Source of the DNA: a virus | Strand: one strand, 5' to 3' | Length of the DNA: 64,000 bases | Virus record (IMG/VR): IMGVR_UViG_3300048909_000109 | Shown: positions 3,765 through 48,770 of the stretch, in pieces | How the letters are laid out: every line of letters begins with the position of its first letter | How positions within the stretch are numbered: the first letter of the stretch is position 1 | Notes under the pieces: generated by a model | Told to the model about the DNA's origin: nothing | Databases searched by the model: none | What the model saw: only the letters and a program-made list of their open reading frames with translations | Program-made: the position numbers and the translations under genes

Positions 3765-3774
3765 GAAGAGCTGT

Positions 3775-4227
3775 ATGGCTTCGGGACCCTGGACTTGGCT
3801 TAACAAGGCCCTTGCAAAACCCTTCGACGGAACTGTAGACCTGGACAGCCATGCCTTCAAGTGCGTGTTGCTCGGTTCTGCGCAGGTTCTGGACGCAACC
3901 TTCGTCGGTGCATCGGGCAACGCTCAGTACTCGGACCTCACTGCTGAGCTTGCAACCGCAAACGGCTATACCAACGGCGGACTTGCACTTGCCGGTATCT
4001 CGATCACCTCACCGACCGCCAGTAGCAAGTCATGGAACGCGACTGACCTTTCCTGGACGCTGACAGGTGGTATCACGATCAAATATGCGGCAATCTTCGA
4101 CAACACCTTGGCCAACAAGGATCTGCTTTGTTTCTGTGACTTCAATCCGGGCGGCGCCGCTGTGGTAGCTTCGATCAGCCCACTCGTGATCGTCACTTCT
4201 CAAGGCATTCTTCAGTGGCATACGTAA
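3775..4227 (+). CDS. Minor tail/virion protein
   Basis: 150 aa; [12 protein letters not shown]...[12 protein letters not shown] pattern typical of phage minor tail proteins; AGGAAG RBS. Confidence 0.7.
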
Positions 4228-5141: not shown

Positions 5142-5468
5142 ATGGCTGGTTTCGATCCTGTTGGCTCACAGCCCGTTGATGCACTCAGTGCACCACTGGT
5201 AGGAACATACTTCCTTCCAGCGCCAGCGATCATCTTCTTAAGCGGCGCTGCTACGGGAGCTAATGTCAGCGGGATCAAGACAGCGGGTCTACAGCGCGAA
5301 GCACTGTTGGCCACTCAGGGAACAATTCGATCTGCGGGTCTTCAACGTGAGGCCCTACTCGCTAAACAAGGCTTCATCTTCTCAGCCGGATTGGTTCGTG
5401 AAGTCTTGCGTTCAGGAAACTCGGGACCAACCGGTGACAACTGCTCAGTGTGCATCATCTGGGGATAG
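5142..5468 (+). CDS. Small virion protein with three AGL(Q/V)RE(A/V)L repeats
   Basis: 108 aa ORF between fibre and endolysin; internal repeats visible in protein. Confidence 0.6.
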   Translation: MAGFDPVGSQPVDALSAPLVGTYFLPAPAIIFLSGAATGANVSGIKTAGLQREALLATQGTIRSAGLQREALLAKQGFIFSAGLVREVLRSGNSGPTGDNCSVCIIWG

Positions 5469-5476
5469 GAGAAATT

Positions 5477-5980
5477 ATGGGACACGTTTGGGGTAAAGGA
5501 TCGTTGGCTCGCATGGAAGGTTTGCATCCTGACTTGGTCAAGGTGCTGAACCGCTACATCGAAGTCTCGCATATCGACAGCACGATCATCGAGGGCGTTC
5601 GCTCGGATGAGCAGTGCTACATCAACTTCGGCAAAGGACGCACCGCAGCTCAGTGCACCGCTGTGGGATGTCCGGCACAATATGCTCAGCCGCATATGCC
5701 GAAGGTGACTTGGGTCGGTCATCCCTTGTCATCGAACCACAGGAAGAAAGCTGACGGCTACGGTTATGCGGTCGATATGTATCCGTATCCCGTCAGTCTC
5801 GTGCTCGCCGGCAAGCCGAAGGATTGGCAGCCTCTGTTCGACCAGATGGCGAAGGATATGAAGCAGGCAGCTGCGGACGTCGGCGTTCATATCCGTTGGG
5901 GTGCTGACTGGGACGGCGACCGGATTGCTCGTGAGCACGGCGAAACTGACAACCCGCATTTCGAGCTTGTGAAAGGATAG
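5477..5980 (+). CDS. Endolysin, M15 family L-Ala-D-Glu peptidase
   Basis: Motifs EGVRS, SNH...AVD, WGADW, DNPHFEL; AGGAGA RBS before ATG 5477. Confidence 0.9.
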   Translation: MGHVWGKGSLARMEGLHPDLVKVLNRYIEVSHIDSTIIEGVRSDEQCYINFGKGRTAAQCTAVGCPAQYAQPHMPKVTWVGHPLSSNHRKKADGYGYAVDMYPYPVSLVLAGKPKDWQPLFDQMAKDMKQAAADVGVHIRWGADWDGDRIAREHGETDNPHFELVKG

Positions 5981-5985
5981 CGTCT

Positions 5986-6273
5986 ATGACTAAGCTTATC
6001 GACATTTTCAAGAGCGGAACTGGTCAGTATGACAGTGCCCGCATCCTCTTTGTGATAGGAGGTCTAAACGGGATTATCACTCCCGTGGCCTTTCAAGCTT
6101 GGGCTATGTGGCGAGGTCAAGCTTGGGATGCTACCGCTTATTGCTTGGCTTATGGAGGAATGCTGTCTGCTGTCCTTTCTCTTGGCGGTCTCGGGATCGC
6201 GACCAAGGACAAGGGAGTAGCCAGCGCAAAGAACACCACGCCGCCGAGTGATCCTCCGGGCGGTCAGCCCTGA
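5986..6273 (+). CDS. Putative holin (2 TM)
   Basis: 95 aa, two hydrophobic helices, charged C-terminus, directly after endolysin. Confidence 0.6.
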   Translation: MTKLIDIFKSGTGQYDSARILFVIGGLNGIITPVAFQAWAMWRGQAWDATAYCLAYGGMLSAVLSLGGLGIATKDKGVASAKNTTPPSDPPGGQP

Positions 6274-6935
6274 TGGAAACGATGATGTCCAGGCATCAGA
6301 GTACGAGAACCGCCTAGCAATAGGTGGCCAGTGGGGCCCGGGTTGACTTGTCCCTCCGATCCGGGTCCCACGTCGTAGTCGTAAGTGTTGAGGACCTTTT
6401 CCATTTCTACGGAGAGCTGCATAGCGTCGTCGTTCATCCGCAGCTCATACTCCCACTTCTCTTTCTGGTCCCTCAGCGCATCGCCGACAGGATCATACCC
6501 CTCTCGAGGCTTGAACCGACGCAGCATAGTGTTGGTGCGCCTCAGTCGACGTTCGAGCTTGCGCCGATCATTCCGGATCGCTTGACGAGAAGCCTTGAGG
6601 CTGAGGATCATCTTGTCCTTGATGTTCTCTCCCTCGGGGTTATCCGTTGACCCGTCAGGACGCTCAGCCTCGACGACTGTCTTAATCATTTCCTTCAGGA
6701 ACAGTTCGATCCGCTCCGGGGTGATCCGATCCTCGTCGGTCCTGCCTGTGGTGTCATAACGCTTCCGGCGTTCCGGATTGATGAGGACATCATGGGCAAG
6801 CTTAATCTGCTCGAACTTGTCTCGATCACCACCATCACTGTCGGGATGATGCTTCGCGGACAGTTTACGGTATGCCTTGCGGATTTCCGTATTCGAAGCT
6901 TGAACAGAAACGCCGAGGATCTGATACAGGTTCAT
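6264..6935 (-). CDS. J-domain (DnaJ-like) co-chaperone
   Basis: LYQILGV...IRKAYRKLSAKHHPD...YD J-domain with HPD motif, then coiled coil. Confidence 0.9.
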   Translation of the reverse strand: MNLYQILGVSVQASNTEIRKAYRKLSAKHHPDSDGGDRDKFEQIKLAHDVLINPERRKRYDTTGRTDEDRITPERIELFLKEMIKTVVEAERPDGSTDNPEGENIKDKMILSLKASRQAIRNDRRKLERRLRRTNTMLRRFKPREGYDPVGDALRDQKEKWEYELRMNDDAMQLSVEMEKVLNTYDYDVGPGSEGQVNPGPTGHLLLGGSRTLMPGHHRFHQG

Positions 6936-7270
6936 TGGTCAGTAAACCCCTGAGCTTGATTGAAGGCCTTCACTCGGGCCCTGGTATCATCAATCGACTT
7001 CCAGGTTGCAGCGAGCTTGGCGCGGCAGTCATCCCCGACTTCGAATGAGTCTGAAATGAGCTGAGCAATATCCTTGTCGGATTTGACCGGCCGTCGTTCA
7101 AGACGAGCCAGACATTCGCGGAGCGAGGGATCAGGCTCTGCAAAGACCAACTTAGTCTTAACGACGACATCACTTATGGTCTTTGGGTGCTGGTCCCCAC
7201 AGGCGGTCAAGGGTGTCAGTGATGACAGGAGACACAGGAGCTGTAGAGGGCGGAGCAGTCTGGATTGCAT
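6932..7270 (-). CDS. o-spanin (Rz1-like lipoprotein)
   Basis: Signal peptide with lipobox LTAC from ATG 7270; overlaps 3' end of i-spanin gene. Confidence 0.75.
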   Translation of the reverse strand: MQSRLLRPLQLLCLLSSLTPLTACGDQHPKTISDVVVKTKLVFAEPDPSLRECLARLERRPVKSDKDIAQLISDSFEVGDDCRAKLAATWKSIDDTRARVKAFNQAQGFTDQ

Positions 7271-7619
7271 GGGAGATTTCCTTATACTGGGCCGTGCGCT
7301 GTTGGGACGCATGGCGTTCTTCGGTTGCGATGTTCTGGTTCGAGCTATGGATTTCGTTCTCGGTTGTCCGAGTCTTCTCGTTATCCGCGTTTGTCTGGAT
7401 CAGCTGTTTCTTCTGTTCTTCCAGGGTCGCCTTGTCACGCAGCAGCTGAGCGTTCTGCGTCTCGAGGTCCTTGATATGCTGGAAGTGTTGGTTGATGAAA
7501 CGAACGGCGAAGAAGATCCCGATGCCGACAAGGATGCCGAGGATCGCAAGTAGGATCATCTTGACGGTGATCGGCTTGCCGAAGGCCGAGAAGGCAACTT
7601 TCGCTAACAGTCCACCCAT
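7170..7619 (-). CDS. i-spanin (Rz-like)
   Basis: Single N-terminal TM, long coiled coil, Pro-rich C-terminus. Confidence 0.75.
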   Translation of the reverse strand: MGGLLAKVAFSAFGKPITVKMILLAILGILVGIGIFFAVRFINQHFQHIKDLETQNAQLLRDKATLEEQKKQLIQTNADNEKTRTTENEIHSSNQNIATEERHASQQRTAQYKEISHAIQTAPPSTAPVSPVITDTLDRLWGPAPKDHK

Positions 7620-8023
7620 TACTTGTCTCCTTCATAGAGTTCATTGACCCACTTGACCAACTGTGGGTTCGCACGGTAGCCGGCATGCCATACCGTATCG
7701 ATCTTCACTCCAGGAGGACAGGTGCCTTTGGCTTTGAGTTCCTTGAGGATCGAGCGGAGTCGTGAGATGCGGACATCGAAGATCTTGGGCTCGGGACCAC
7801 CATCAACCTGATCGCCATACATCAAGATATGGAAGGTCTGTCGGCTAATGACTGCGGGAGCACGTTTGACGAGGAGGTAGAGCATGGTGGCGAGGGTCTT
7901 CGTCATGCCATGCCTCAAAGCCATTAACGCGCCCAGCTCCTTGTCAGAGCCAGTCAAGGCTTCGAGTTGTTGCTTGAGGAGTTCTACCTGATCCTCAAGC
8001 TGTTCACGCGATAACTCGTCCAT
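7619..8023 (-). CDS. OmpR/CtrA-type winged-helix DNA-binding protein lacking a receiver domain
   Basis: GGPEPKIFDVRISRLR...IDTVWHAGYR resembles the CtrA C-terminus; N-terminal heptad repeat. Confidence 0.8.
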   Translation of the reverse strand: MDELSREQLEDQVELLKQQLEALTGSDKELGALMALRHGMTKTLATMLYLLVKRAPAVISRQTFHILMYGDQVDGGPEPKIFDVRISRLRSILKELKAKGTCPPGVKIDTVWHAGYRANPQLVKWVNELYEGDK

Positions 8024-8058: not shown

Positions 8059-8087
8059 ATTTTACTTCCTGGCAACCTTTTGGTCAA
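8059..8087 (-). promoter_or_regulatory. Sigma70-type promoter for wHTH-spanin-J-domain unit
   Basis: TTGACC-17-TAAAAT on minus strand. Confidence 0.65.
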
Positions 8088-8179: not shown

Positions 8180-8512
8180 TCATGACACGCGATCGACTAG
8201 CGTGATGCGACCTCGGCGATATATTCTGAGGCCACCATTGGCTCGTCCTATGCGCCCTTCGATGGGCACTCCCTTGCGACGCACCATATAGCAGGTGGCA
8301 TGTATCACTTTGAGCCAGGTATCGGGTATGCGGCTATTGCCCCACATTTCTTCGATCAGGTCTTCAGCCCGGGTCCAGTGTTCGGGATGACGACGAAGTA
8401 GTGCCACAACGAGTTTATGCTCTTGGTCAGACAGCTGTATCCTTCGAACGCCTACCCTTACTTCACGCCGATGGTACTCGGGTATAGACATGGATACGGG
8501 AGCAAACATCAA
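8180..8512 (-). CDS. Second Trans_reg_C-like winged-helix protein
   Basis: IQLSDQEHKLVVALL...EDLIEEMWG pattern of OmpR-type effector domains. Confidence 0.6.
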   Translation of the reverse strand: MMFAPVSMSIPEYHRREVRVGVRRIQLSDQEHKLVVALLRRHPEHWTRAEDLIEEMWGNSRIPDTWLKVIHATCYMVRRKGVPIEGRIGRANGGLRIYRRGRITLVDRVS

Positions 8513-8832
8513 GTCTCATCCCATGGTGGGATTGGTACAGTCTGACCCGCGAGGCGATGAGTGCAGTCATTGAGGAACTGGATCTTCCCGTCGGTAACAA
8601 AGCTGTGGCATACTCCAACTACCAGAGTATAAGCTTTCTCTGCTTCGTTCCATCTTTTGTAGGTAACTACGATGGACGGACGAAAGGTTGGCGCATAGGC
8701 ATTTCCGTTGTAGGTCCAGCGATGACCTTGACCAGATCCCACAGGAACGCCATGTGCTCCGTCACATCCCGGACACCAAAAGATGAGCAGTCCGTCAGAC
8801 GCCTGTCGAAGGATTGGTGATATGAGACCCAT
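8509..8832 (-). CDS. DUF6527-like Cys/His-rich protein
   Basis: FWCPGCDGAH, WTYNGN...PTFRPSI, CHSFVTDGKIQFLNDCTH. Confidence 0.6.
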   Translation of the reverse strand: MGLISPILRQASDGLLIFWCPGCDGAHGVPVGSGQGHRWTYNGNAYAPTFRPSIVVTYKRWNEAEKAYTLVVGVCHSFVTDGKIQFLNDCTHRLAGQTVPIPPWDET

Positions 8833-11125: not shown

Positions 11126-11312
11126 CGGTGGCTCCTTTCATGGCGAACTTAAGTGTCACGGTCCGCATTTGGAAGTCATCTTGTATTTCGTCTTCCGAAT
11201 ACGTGACCGCCTGTGGGATGACTTCGCCAGACTTCAATCCCGCAGTAATTGCTTCGAACTGCTCGGTGAGACGTTCACGGTCAAGACCGAACGGAAACTT
11301 TCTTACGCTCAT
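11118..11312 (-). CDS. Hypothetical protein
   Basis: 64 aa ORF with GGAG RBS, within operon. Confidence 0.55.
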   Translation of the reverse strand: MSVRKFPFGLDRERLTEQFEAITAGLKSGEVIPQAVTYSEDEIQDDFQMRTVTLKFAMKGATDG

Positions 11313-29644: not shown

Positions 29645-30419
29645 CTTGTAGTTTTTCCTAGCGCTATATACACACCAGATTGTCGATTTCGCGGTTTTTC
29701 ACTCAAGAGTAGTGCCGAAATAGGACCAGATTGGCATTTCCGTATGGCATTTTACAGGAAGAGCGCCTTAGTGTCAATACGGAACAAATCTTGAGTAAAA
29801 ACCTACAAAAACTACAATAACTGGACTGTTCGCGCATGGGCAAACCCGTAACAGGATTGGATCTATGCAGACCAGGATCGTGATTTTAGGGGAGAAAAGA
29901 CCAGCTGGACCAGCCGAGAGACGGACCAATATGAGCCACGTAATTACGTGATAGACTAGGTAGAGCTGTATAGCCTGCAACTGTATAGGACGGGTATGGA
30001 CCAGCCAGTACTCTGACCAACTTCTCTACAGCAAGACTTGATCGAGACAAGTTCAGACGAGCGGAATGCTTACAACTAATTACGTGTCGGTTGGTCCAAC
30101 CAGCATGTGAAGTGTTTATAGTGCGGCTGCTGTGGGCAATAATCTGCGTGCTGGCCATATGGATCTATCTGCACCTACACCTTCAACTGTATAGCCAGGG
30201 TAAGCAATAGTTGGTCCAGCCGTAAGATTAGCCAAGCCATGGTTGGCCCAGCCGCTGAACGCTGGCCGTCCCACATGGACATACTACACGTGGCTGGCCC
30301 ACCCGCTGAACGGATTATGGTTAAGCCAAACTTAATGGTAACCAAATATGGTTAAGCCAGCGCAGCGGAATTGTTAACCATATTCCGTCCCAATACGAGA
30401 CAGAGAAAAAAGAAATGGC
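29645..30419. repeat. Non-coding block with short direct repeats and CtrA-type boxes (origin/terminus candidate)
   Basis: TAATTACGTG x2, CTGTATAG x3, TGGCCCA(G/C)CCGCTGAACG x2, TTAACCAT x3. Confidence 0.55.
30320..30335. promoter_or_regulatory. Consensus CtrA box
   Basis: TTAA-GCCAAAC-TTAA; reads TTAA-N7-TTAAC on minus strand. Confidence 0.75.
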
Positions 30420-30473
30420 TTATTGATTTGTTAATAGATTGCGCGCATATTGTGATTGTCGCAATGACGCGAC
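30420..30473 (+). promoter_or_regulatory. Promoter with CtrA-like box and +1 hairpin
   Basis: TTAT-N7-TTAA over TTGATT-17-CATATT-6-GTCGC AATGAC GCGAC. Confidence 0.75.
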
Positions 30474-30490
30474 ATCGAAAGGAAATGAAC

Positions 30491-30912: not shown

Positions 30913-30944
30913 GTAACGATTTCTTAATCTGTTGCACGTATACT
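30913..30944 (+). promoter_or_regulatory. CtrA-type promoter
   Basis: GTAA-N7-TTAA ending 11 nt before TATACT; no canonical -35. Confidence 0.6.
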
Positions 30945-30972
30945 GTGAACATCGAAACGAAAGGAACTGACC

Positions 30973-42392: not shown

Positions 42393-42439
42393 GCTTCCTC
42401 CTGTGGCATAGATGACTACATCATATCACGCGCACGAAA

Positions 42440-42476
42440 TCTCTTAAATCCCCGCCTGGTATAACTATAGCCATTG
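42440..42476 (+). promoter_or_regulatory. Late-type promoter motif shared with the portal promoter
   Basis: TCTCTTAA-N11-GTATAA(C)TATAGCCATTG; 28/37 identical to 48734-48770. Confidence 0.65.
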
Positions 42477-42495: not shown

Positions 42496-43017
42496 GTGGG
42501 AAACCGAGACCAGATGGGAAATGATATGCTTATCGTCGAGATGAAGCGACACTTCGAAGTTCGAGCTATCGAATGGTGGAGTGCCTCTTGCCTTCTCGCA
42601 TGGGGATCCATTGTTCTCCTTATGCCAGGCCTGTTCGTTCGTCCAGAGTATCAGGCATTCTTTCAACCTTTAACCAATTGGGCTCCACAACCAGTGTGGG
42701 GCATGTTCGCCTTTGTTATGGGCGGTTCGAGGCTAGTTGCCTTGACAGTGAACGGCTTTTGGTGCCGAACACCTCAAATAAGACTACTGACCTCTTTTCT
42801 GTCTGTATGCGTGTGGTTCTTCATCGCTGCCGGCATGTTTAGGTCAGGTGCCGTCTTAGGCATCATCATTTATGGATGGCACATGCTCGCAGATATCTAC
42901 TCATCCTTCCGCTCGGCAGCTGATGTCGTGGAAGCGGAGGCTACCAGAAGGCTGCGTGAGCTCACTCCTGTTGGGTCCGAGGAGCAGTCCAATGTTCGCA
43001 GCCTTACAGGGCGCTAA
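42496..43017 (+). CDS. Multi-pass membrane protein (holin-like candidate)
   Basis: About four hydrophobic segments. Confidence 0.6.
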   Translation: MGNRDQMGNDMLIVEMKRHFEVRAIEWWSASCLLAWGSIVLLMPGLFVRPEYQAFFQPLTNWAPQPVWGMFAFVMGGSRLVALTVNGFWCRTPQIRLLTSFLSVCVWFFIAAGMFRSGAVLGIIIYGWHMLADIYSSFRSAADVVEAEATRRLRELTPVGSEEQSNVRSLTGR

Positions 43018-46490: not shown

Positions 46491-46553
46491 GTATCACTCC
46501 TCGATGGGGAATGACTACATAATATCTTCAACGCGTCGAAAGATCAACCGTCC

Positions 46554-47084: not shown

Positions 47085-48720
47085 TCACCACCTCAAGACT
47101 ATCGACCTTGCGAAGCTTTCCGAAAACTTAACGGATGAAGAAGCCGATGAACTCCTCCACACCTGGGAACTTTGGGCGCGGCCCAATCAACTTGAGCCCG
47201 ACGCGGTTCTCCCAAATGGCGAACATTGGGTCACATGGCTTATTCTGGCAGGTCGCGGTTTCGGAAAGACTCGATGCGGAGCAGAGACAGTTATTAAGTG
47301 GGTTCGCGAAGGGACCTGTCGAAGAATTGCATTGGTTGCTGAGGACTCCGCTGATGCGCGAGACGTTATGGTGGAAGGTGAGTCAGGGATCCTTGCCTGT
47401 TCTCCGCGGGATTTCCGTCCTGAGTACTTCCCTTCTAAGCGACGCCTCGTCTGGCCAAATGGCGCTATTGCTACCCTTTTCTCCGCAGAGGATTTTGACT
47501 CGCTTCGTGGTCCCCAATTCGACGGTGCCTGGTGCGACGAGCTTTGCAAGTGGAGATACGCCCAGGAGGCGTGGGATAACCTTCAGTTCGGACTCCGTCT
47601 TGGCGACCATCCCAAGCAGATCGTTACTACAACGCCTCGACCGCTTAGGCTTCTAAAAGACATCATCCTCCGGAGTGATACAGCCCTCACGAAGGGCTCG
47701 ACGATGGAGAACCTGGTCAATCTTGCACCGCCGTTCCGTAAAGCGGTGGTTGATAAGTACCAAGGAACTCGGATCGGTCGACAGGAGTTGAACGCGGAAA
47801 TTCTCGATGATGTGCCCGGTGCCCTGTGGAACCGGACTATGATCGATGATGACCGCATCACTCCCATCGATAGTGTCACTCCCGTCGTTCTGCCGCACTT
47901 CGTTCGTGTCCTGGTCGCAGTCGATCCAGCGAAGGAGGTTCAACAGAAGCGCTCGGAAAACAAGAAGCAGAGCGATGAGTATAAGGCGACTGCATATGCA
48001 GAGACCGGTATCGTCGTTGTGGGCAAGACTCAAGAGGGTCACGGTTACCTACTCGAGGATCTATCATTCCATGGTACCCCGGAAGAGTGGGGCCGCGTTG
48101 CAGTGCAGGCGTATGACGACTGGGCGGCTGATCAAATTGTCTATGAGGCCAATCAGGGCGGTGAGATGGTTGCCGCTGTTCTTCGTCAGGCCGGTAAGTC
48201 TCTGAAGGAAGAAGGTCACCGCACAGCTGACTTTGTTCCTATGAAGGCTGTTCACGCAACTCGAGGCAAAATCGTTCGTGCCGAGCCAGTGTCTCAGCTC
48301 TATGAACAGCACAAGGTTCACCACGTTGGTTACTTCCCCGAACTTGAGGATCAACTGTGCGAGTATACCGAGGCCGGAAATATGGGTTATTCGCCGGACC
48401 GGATGGACGCCTTGGTGTGGGGCTTCACTGAATTGCTGGTTGGTTCGATTGCACATGAAGGCCTCATGGATTACTATCGCCAGGAGAACGAGGCGATCAA
48501 GAAGCGGCTTTCTGGTCAAGAAACCTATGACCTCTCATCCGCTTCGACGGTGCCGATGTTGCCACCGCCAGTGAATACACCACTAGTGGCATATGGCATG
48601 AGTGGCATTGAGTATCGCATCGACGGCGAGGGGCTCTTCCATGTGAAGGAGGAGGACGTTGCTCCCCTGCAGTCAGCTGGCTTTAAGCGCAACTTCACTG
48701 ATGCTAAAGTGGCACCTTGA
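47023..48720 (+). CDS. terL: Terminase large subunit (start approximate)
   Basis: AGRGFGKT, WCDEL, TTTP, VAVDPA, EANQGG, SPDRMDALVWG. Confidence 0.95.
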   Translation: MSGDESGEQLNKVIDGKLLRSHHLKTIDLAKLSENLTDEEADELLHTWELWARPNQLEPDAVLPNGEHWVTWLILAGRGFGKTRCGAETVIKWVREGTCRRIALVAEDSADARDVMVEGESGILACSPRDFRPEYFPSKRRLVWPNGAIATLFSAEDFDSLRGPQFDGAWCDELCKWRYAQEAWDNLQFGLRLGDHPKQIVTTTPRPLRLLKDIILRSDTALTKGSTMENLVNLAPPFRKAVVDKYQGTRIGRQELNAEILDDVPGALWNRTMIDDDRITPIDSVTPVVLPHFVRVLVAVDPAKEVQQKRSENKKQSDEYKATAYAETGIVVVGKTQEGHGYLLEDLSFHGTPEEWGRVAVQAYDDWAADQIVYEANQGGEMVAAVLRQAGKSLKEEGHRTADFVPMKAVHATRGKIVRAEPVSQLYEQHKVHHVGYFPELEDQLCEYTEAGNMGYSPDRMDALVWGFTELLVGSIAHEGLMDYYRQENEAIKKRLSGQETYDLSSASTVPMLPPPVNTPLVAYGMSGIEYRIDGEGLFHVKEEDVAPLQSAGFKRNFTDAKVAP

Positions 48721-48726
48721 TCCCCG

Positions 48727-48770
48727 GTAACCGTCTCTTAACCAACCTGCCAGTATAAATATAGCCATTG
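48727..48770 (+). promoter_or_regulatory. CtrA-box late promoter upstream of portal
   Basis: GTAA-N7-TTAAC ending about 12 nt before TATAAA. Confidence 0.65.

Follow-up and report, generated by a model that had tools for sequence, protein, structure and literature searches.

Does a phage gene that encodes a CtrA-like DNA-binding domain with no receiver in front of it provide a stand-in for the host cell-cycle regulator, one that works without phosphorylation? The question is raised by a minus-strand ORF in the viral sequence studied here, a stretch of 64,000 nt (IMG/VR virus record IMGVR_UViG_3300048909_000109) that we refer to as the window. The window makes up most of a ∼65.8-kb phage genome, and its nearest record is an IMG/VR contig encoding an identical protein. 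A preliminary description of the sequence saw in the gene product a CtrA-like protein fused to a zipper, noted CtrA-type boxes at the promoters of the same genome, and proposed that the phage may encode a constitutively dimeric activator or competitor for CtrA sites. The features that bear on this proposal are collected in Table 1.

Table 1. Regulator gene, domains of its product, neighbouring genes and regulatory elements in the window
Feature	Position	Strand	Evidence and remarks
CDS of the CtrA-type winged-helix protein	7619..8023	-	ORF, Trans_reg_C, at least 120 close homologues, AlphaFold2 model
N-terminal amphipathic helix, residues 6-24, with heptad-spaced L9/V13/L16/L20/L23	7952..8008	-	Model and column statistics, 32 members
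OmpR/PhoB-type winged helix-turn-helix, residues 40-117, without N-terminal β-platform	7673..7906	-	Pfam, model, Foldseek
Recognition helix, residues 81-99, after the conserved DGGPEPK loop	7727..7783	-	Alignment with named CtrA; KIFDVRISRLR here
Family-specific C-terminal helix, residues 120-133; invariant P120, L122, W125	7625..7666	-	Family conservation, model
σ70-type promoter TTGACC-17-TAAAAT, directly upstream of the regulator gene	8059..8087	-	Promoter scan, 10/12 matches
Rz-like i-spanin gene; its ATG overlaps the regulator stop (TAATG)	7170..7619	-	PHROG Rz-like spanin, E 3e-6
Overlapped o-spanin gene, lipobox LTAC	6932..7312	-	PHROG Rz1-like, E 4.8e-4
J-domain (DnaJ-like) gene, last in the unit	6264..6935	-	HPD in translation; kept in 5/5 relatives
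M15-type peptidase endolysin-like ORF	5450-5980	+	End of plus-strand late operon
95-aa membrane (holin-like) ORF	5986-6273	+	End of plus-strand late operon
DUF6527 gene	8509-8832	-	Window
Second receiver-less winged-helix gene, weaker	8180-8512	-	Trans_reg_C only 19.4 bits; best NCBIfam model MtrA
Half-site cluster: three AWTATGGTTAA copies (two direct, one inverted), including the single perfect TTAA-N7-TTAA	30314..30384	.	Site counts
Early promoter of the first rightward gene, -35 TTGATT 30423-28, -10 CATATT 30446-51	30420..30451	+	Overlapped by a 7/8 box TTAT-N7-TTAA (30420-34)

The ORF was confirmed as a receiver-less CtrA-type winged-helix CDS, which starts with ATG and encodes 134 aa, and both strings quoted in the preliminary description are present in it: LEDQVELLKQQLEAL at residues 9-23 and GGPEPKIFDVRISRLR ... 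IDTVWHAGYR at residues 75-117. The claim that the receiver is missing was borne out. Pfam family PF00486 (Trans_reg_C) matched residues 40-117 over profile positions 6-76 of 77, with 32.8 bits against a cut-off of 26.2 (E 7.6e-8), while Response_reg (PF00072) gave no match in the 134-aa protein, the receiver and its phospho-accepting Asp both being absent.

An AlphaFold2 model was built from an alignment of 32 family members (mean pLDDT 85). It begins with a helix at residues 6-24 and a short helix at 27-34, followed by a winged helix (α1 42-54, α2 61-69, α3 81-99, hairpin 108-118) in which the α1-α2-α3 helices and the C-terminal β-hairpin wing of the OmpR/PhoB type are present. The four-stranded N-terminal β-platform is missing: residues 1-39 are modelled as two helices, and the platform segment is deleted in the alignment with CtrA. 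A Foldseek search with the model returned OmpR-family DNA-binding domains only, with probability 1.00 to the SaeR, ArlR, PhoB and CtrA domains; ToxR structures were among the fold matches, and the highest sequence identity (30-34%) was that of CtrA entries. Sequence searches of the PDB, both single and profile, produced only SaeR, ToxR, PcoR and ArlR domains, hence no CtrA structure on which contacts could be mapped. Throughout the family the recognition helix and the wing are the most conserved parts of the protein.

Clustering with generic OmpR domains had been set as the outcome that would count against a CtrA lineage. This comparison was run, and NCBIfam models, the family profile, hhalign and the domain tree favoured CtrA. 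The CtrA model NF045991 ranks top among NCBIfam models for the 134-aa protein (23.7 bits, followed by RpaB with 20.0 and OmpR with 16.2), a score that misses the equivalog cut-off of 350 bits and comes from model positions 154-219 only. Of all NCBIfam models it also matches the most family members (28 of 32), with a best E-value of 4.7e-9 vs 4.7e-7 for RpaB. A profile made from the phage family only gave 28-49 bits to 15 CtrA proteins (a tool-derived set, with one member named Rickettsia CtrA by NCBI) vs 2-34 bits to 23 other regulators of the OmpR family, drawn from five non-alphaproteobacterial genomes. Alignment of the phage family with the CtrA alignment by hhalign had a probability of 97.7% and an E-value of 1.8e-12. 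The maximum-likelihood tree of the domain, inferred from 74 columns only and with an outgroup lacking the alphaproteobacterial CtrA paralogues (CenR, PhoB, ChvI, PetR and others), sets the generic regulators apart from CtrA, CtrA-like and receiver-less proteins taken together (SH-aLRT 99). Within the latter, the receiver-less proteins form a group (SH-aLRT 86) that stands beside CtrA (SH-aLRT 93) and not inside it.

Motifs point in the same direction. PExKI(I/F)DV, I(C/S)(K/R)LR and, in the wing, I(D/E)TVW are common to the phage family and CtrA and absent from the generic consensus, and distant relatives such as DGGPEPKILDVVVCKVRRK...IETVWGVGY bridge the phage-family and CtrA forms. The CtrA pattern given in the preliminary description agrees with the consensus of the 15 tool-derived CtrA proteins, which includes IETVWGRGY. 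Judged from sequence, the assignment of the DNA-binding domain as CtrA-type rather than generic holds, with five tests in agreement and a small margin for the window protein alone.

The positions at which a domain of this fold contacts bases are known for PhoB from structures of its complexes with DNA. At the PhoB-type contact positions the phage protein has I81, V84 and R88, vs I, V and K in CtrA, and the wing Trp (W112) is common to both. Two positions of the recognition helix differ from CtrA, namely 85 (R/H vs F) and 87 (S/G/A/T vs C). The α2-α3 loop is two residues longer than in CtrA, yet it is invariant (DGGPEPK), which suggests a conserved protein contact.

The part of the protein described as a zipper has real heptad spacing across the 32 family members, but its extent is modest. 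Positions 9, 13, 16, 20 and 23 are strongly hydrophobic (spacing 4-3-4-3), and position 13 is V, I or N, with Asn in seven of the 32. An Asn pattern of this kind is typical of dimeric zippers, but the helix spans only about two heptads, when a leucine zipper was defined here by at least three heptads with hydrophobic a/d positions together with self-association. A homodimer prediction made with two copies and the family alignment scored 0.13, the mark being 0.42, and weighs neither for nor against pairing. As the helix is this short, dimerisation is reasonable to infer but does not count as a result. The helix was also considered as a relic of receiver helix α5, where both MAFFT and hhalign align it; homology was not regarded as shown.

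CtrA-type sites in the window come down to one cluster (30314-30434). The single perfect TTAA-N7-TTAA box lies at 30321-30335, with 0.10 expected in the window, and all three copies of TTAACCAT fall within 65 bp (30317-30381), with 0.68 expected in the whole window. Random placement equalled the observed clustering of TTAA in 50 of 5000 trials. An 846-bp gap separates divergent modules here, and within it the AWTATGGTTAA copies precede the first rightward gene by ∼110-175 bp. Thus, of the claim that CtrA-type boxes occur at the promoters of this genome, the perfect box and the TTAACCAT cluster stand, but boxes with one mismatch are at chance level (seven found vs 6.15 expected). TTAA placed 11-12 nt before a strict −10 was found four times vs 0.5 expected, a suggestive excess with too few cases to build on.

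The homologous position in the relative G004, which also has the TTATTGATTTATTAA-N11-CATATT of the early promoter, carries a denser array: 13 TTAA in ∼170 bp, the half-sites being spaced mostly by 13 bp vs the 11 bp of the CtrA full site. There are 16 TTAA in 200 bp at this position in G006, a TTAACCAT cluster is present in G014, and Brevundimonas phage Polewnik has an array with a similar arrangement of two direct copies and one inverted copy. Among nine related genomes that have the gene and are complete or nearly so, only four showed TTAA/TTAACCAT arrays. The genomes G002, G003, G005, G012 and G013 have the gene and no array, and we found no difference in the recognition helices of the relatives that matches the presence or absence of the array. 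In Polewnik (L083) three TTAA/TTAACCAT clusters were observed (298-372, 3768-3869 and 7471-7539), which include three perfect TTAA-N7-TTAA boxes. Arrays of this type in phage gaps were shown to be bound by host CtrA (PMC9437464), and so cannot be claimed as an obligatory target of the phage protein; either host CtrA or the phage protein may read them, or both may.

Several other elements are conserved around these sites and elsewhere. A near-identical leader, ACATCGAAA(C/G)GCAAT(A/G)ACGCG, follows the early −10 in six genomes (30446-30480 and the homologous sites of G002-G006), and the CATCGAAA leader also occurs after a second promoter (30913-30960). Five of six genomes retain, in their large intergenic gap, the element CTGTATRG-N-AYGGGTAG (29966-30000) with GG(N)CCAGCC repeats nearby. 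It is distinct from the TTAACCAT cluster and may serve as an origin or in packaging. The sequence CCCACAGG (often TCCCACAGG) has 8-17 copies per genome in six related genomes vs roughly two expected. Its copies are on both strands and mostly inside genes (e.g. at 871, 8738, 19144, 31517 and 46929, and on the minus strand at 11210, 21439 and 58880); the word could act as a signal in modification, restriction or recombination, or reflect shared codon bias. There are two near-identical promoter-like elements, TCTCTTAA-N12-TATAA(A/C)TATAGCCATTG, one ahead of the portal gene (48727-48765) and one ahead of a gene near 42496 (42436-42475). The portal copy is without counterpart in the relatives, in which terL and the portal gene are contiguous.

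A search for a binding-site word common to all six genomes brought up only codon-like words and YCCCACAGG, the latter scattered inside genes, and no candidate was retained. Upstream regions of terS, the portal gene and the primase gene have ordinary σ70 promoters or a promoter lacking a −35, with no shared TTAA element. The 63-bp divergent region before the small terminase gene (terS, 46491-46553) contains a −10-like hexamer and no recognisable −35 in six of six genomes, which suggests an activator-dependent late promoter.

The context of the regulator gene is conserved. The element TTGAC(C/T/G)-17-TAxxAT, along with flanking bases, precedes the orthologue in all five related complete genomes. 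The order of the regulator and J-domain genes is retained in all five, and an i-spanin gene was detected by tblastn beside the regulator gene in four (G005 gave no match). The minus-strand unit of regulator, spanin and J-domain genes is convergent with the plus-strand endolysin and holin genes, and the lysis genes are thus split between two transcription units. A listed minus-strand ORF at 5342-5722 overlaps the endolysin gene and is probably spurious. Farther upstream of the regulator there is a strong terminator (8901-8870), and two window-only genes lie between this terminator and the regulator promoter. One of them, the second winged-helix gene, had no tblastn match in the five related genomes, so that together with the DUF6527 gene it looks like a window-specific insertion.

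Close homologues of the 134-aa protein fall into at least 120 clusters (121 were counted), with at least 56% identity, a uniform length of ∼130 aa and, in many cases, a location on 60-67-kb contigs. A library of 1.84 billion representatives gave 92 matching clusters. Of 89 more distant clusters, 88 have Trans_reg_C, and Response_reg was found in none of these 88. The contexts that we examined in the clade were phage DNA in four out of four cases: a gene adjoining a phage lysozyme gene behind GTA-type tail genes, one grouped with CI-like repressor and GapR genes in a temperate early operon, one at the end of a ThyX/GapR nucleotide module and one after a primase gene. Searches with family patterns against 185,579 bacterial and archaeal species genomes yielded no close copy, only generic response regulators at 33-35% identity, and therefore neither prophage copies nor a clue to the host.

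The DNA polymerase of the phage is closest to those of the Brevundimonas phages Polewnik and Strzyga (56% identity); a megablast search with 6 kb around the gene gave no match to cultured phages. Related proteins occur in cultured phages of Roseobacter, Paracoccus, Rhodobacter, Sinorhizobium and Brevundimonas, hosts that are all Alphaproteobacteria, the class that has CtrA. From these hosts and from the GapR neighbours, the clade appears to be restricted to alphaproteobacterial phages.

What does the protein do? The explanation that we place first, at about even odds, is that it is a phage transcription factor, a phosphorylation-independent winged helix of CtrA lineage that would read CtrA-like half-sites. 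With the receiver absent, its activity can neither depend on Asp phosphorylation nor be gated by the host CckA-ChpT-CtrA phosphorelay. The N-terminal helix would pair two subunits, and since the CtrA-like contact positions are kept (I81, V84 and R88, with W112 in the wing), the protein would be expected to read TTAAC-type half-sites. It would then act on the phage TTAACCAT array and box-bearing promoters where these are present, on host sites controlled by CtrA, or on both, independently of the state of the host cell cycle. Candidate phage targets are the arrays that precede the first early gene of the window, of G004, of G006 and of Polewnik. Half-site reading is weakened, as far as sequence can tell, by the five gene-bearing genomes without arrays and by the features unlike CtrA, that is, helix positions 85 and 87 and the length of the loop.

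The same observations can be arranged differently. The gene is universal in this phage group and the arrays are not; in other phages such arrays are bound by host CtrA (PMC9437464). It is possible, if rather unlikely, that the protein is a phage-specific regulator with a specificity that has drifted from CtrA boxes, that the arrays belong to host CtrA and that the CtrA ancestry is only historical. Such a regulator might, as one possibility, activate late structural promoters lacking a −35 or serve an early-to-late switch, which would fit the wider clade, whose members close early or replication modules and are directly followed by late or lysis genes, as well as the −10 without recognisable −35 at the small terminase promoter of all six genomes. 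Still, promoter positions have no motif common to the six genomes, and the residues expected to contact bases stay CtrA-like. Another reading places the target in the host. The recognition helix and the α2-α3 loop are very strongly conserved though the regulatory regions of the phages differ completely, which agrees with a target that is itself conserved and not part of the phage genome; the gene is under a consensus host-type promoter without operator-like sites, and the clade is seemingly limited to alphaproteobacterial phages. The protein might then be mainly a mimic or competitor of CtrA at the chromosomal origin and CtrA-regulon promoters, the phage sites being incidental, and might stop host replication or division or change pilus and flagellum expression. 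We consider this decidedly unlikely: it is pure inference, and a domain without the β-platform may not reproduce the tandem binding of CtrA.

Translational coupling to the i-spanin gene and the conserved gene order could also be taken for the mark of a role away from DNA, with the protein as a structural or regulatory partner of the co-transcribed spanins or of the J-domain protein. An intact winged-helix fold, with the recognition helix and wing as its most conserved parts, and the clade members that do not neighbour lysis genes speak against such a role, which we find very improbable. Returning to the DNA-binding, CtrA-lineage factor, a wider version is that the large phage-restricted clade comprises constitutive stand-ins for phosphorylated CtrA, which would occupy the host origin, CtrA-regulon promoters and, where present, phage arrays, and so would free the phage from CckA-ChpT-CtrA or freeze the host cell cycle. 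We hold this version to be unlikely. If true, it would be a phage counter-strategy to 'lytic deferment' as published for host CtrA. A phage CtrA-type domain free of phosphorylation could take over the host programme or override the host signal.

How do these proteins compare with known systems? CtrA itself (NF045991) is the nearest named relative of the phage domain, with 30-34% identity. In both, the pattern Y-G...(D/G)xPExKI(I/F)DVxI(C/S)(K/R)LR covers the loop and the recognition helix, and the wing has I(D/E)TVWxxGY. In contrast to CtrA, the phage protein has no receiver, no Asp51 and no β-platform, has gained an N-terminal amphipathic helix and a C-terminal helix, and is phage-encoded. 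Stand-alone OmpR-type regulators such as ToxR/CadC and SARP work free of phosphorylation by other means of oligomerisation or activation. These, however, have membrane anchors or BTAD domains and keep the β-platform, and they show no specific sequence relationship to the window protein.

As for phages, the novelty of the protein had been overstated in the preliminary description. Gene product 37 of roseophage RDJL-phi-1 (151 aa) is annotated as ctrA, RDJL-phi-2 has a 'transcriptional regulator CtrA', and both Hynes et al. (2016) and Fogg (2019) describe the RDJL-phi-1 version as lacking the receiver (PMC6363796, PMC5026251); thus, the kind is already known. Like the window protein, gp37 is a phage-encoded CtrA-type domain without receiver, but it is far closer to CtrA (85.7 bits on the CtrA model), begins directly with the domain where the window protein has its N-terminal helix, and has a C-terminal extension. 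Its gene is located between GafA-like and rcc01866-like genes. BLASTP aligns the two proteins in the domain only (30% identity over 80 residues, E 1e-6).

Other cultured phages have counterparts too, with identity of at most 32% and lengths from 151 to 279 aa. The 'CzcR-like response regulator' of Roseobacter phage RDJL3 and Paracoccus phage vB_PmaS-R3 matches the window protein directly (in the literature on roseophage CzcR we found nothing relevant), and HTH proteins of Rhodobacter capsulatus phages of the RcSalem group match the clade member P0198. Gene 00670 of Polewnik (47312-47767) encodes a helix plus winged helix as in the window protein (family profile 33.5 bits, positions 5-124); it is a divergent homologue near spanin genes and is annotated only as 'helix-like DNA-binding protein'. 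Since this cultured member exists, in a phage growing on B. pondensis LVF1, the idea is directly testable.

The 'lytic deferment' model of Mascolo et al. (2022) was based on clusters of host-CtrA sites in phages of Alphaproteobacteria (PMC9437464). In Brevundimonas phage Delta, as in the window, the site cluster occupies a large gap that separates divergent modules and lies just ahead of a small first gene. That paper reports no CtrA-like gene encoded by phages, whereas here array and gene co-occur, in some genomes only. Receiver-less CtrA-type genes are not a curiosity of a single roseophage; they make a large conserved clade with a defined architecture. What is new in comparison with the systems above is this architecture, a helix followed by a platform-less CtrA-type winged helix and a C-terminal helix, and also the size and phage restriction of the clade, the conservation of the promoter and of the link to the spanin genes, the co-occurrence with CtrA-site arrays in part of the genomes and the presence of a cultured member.
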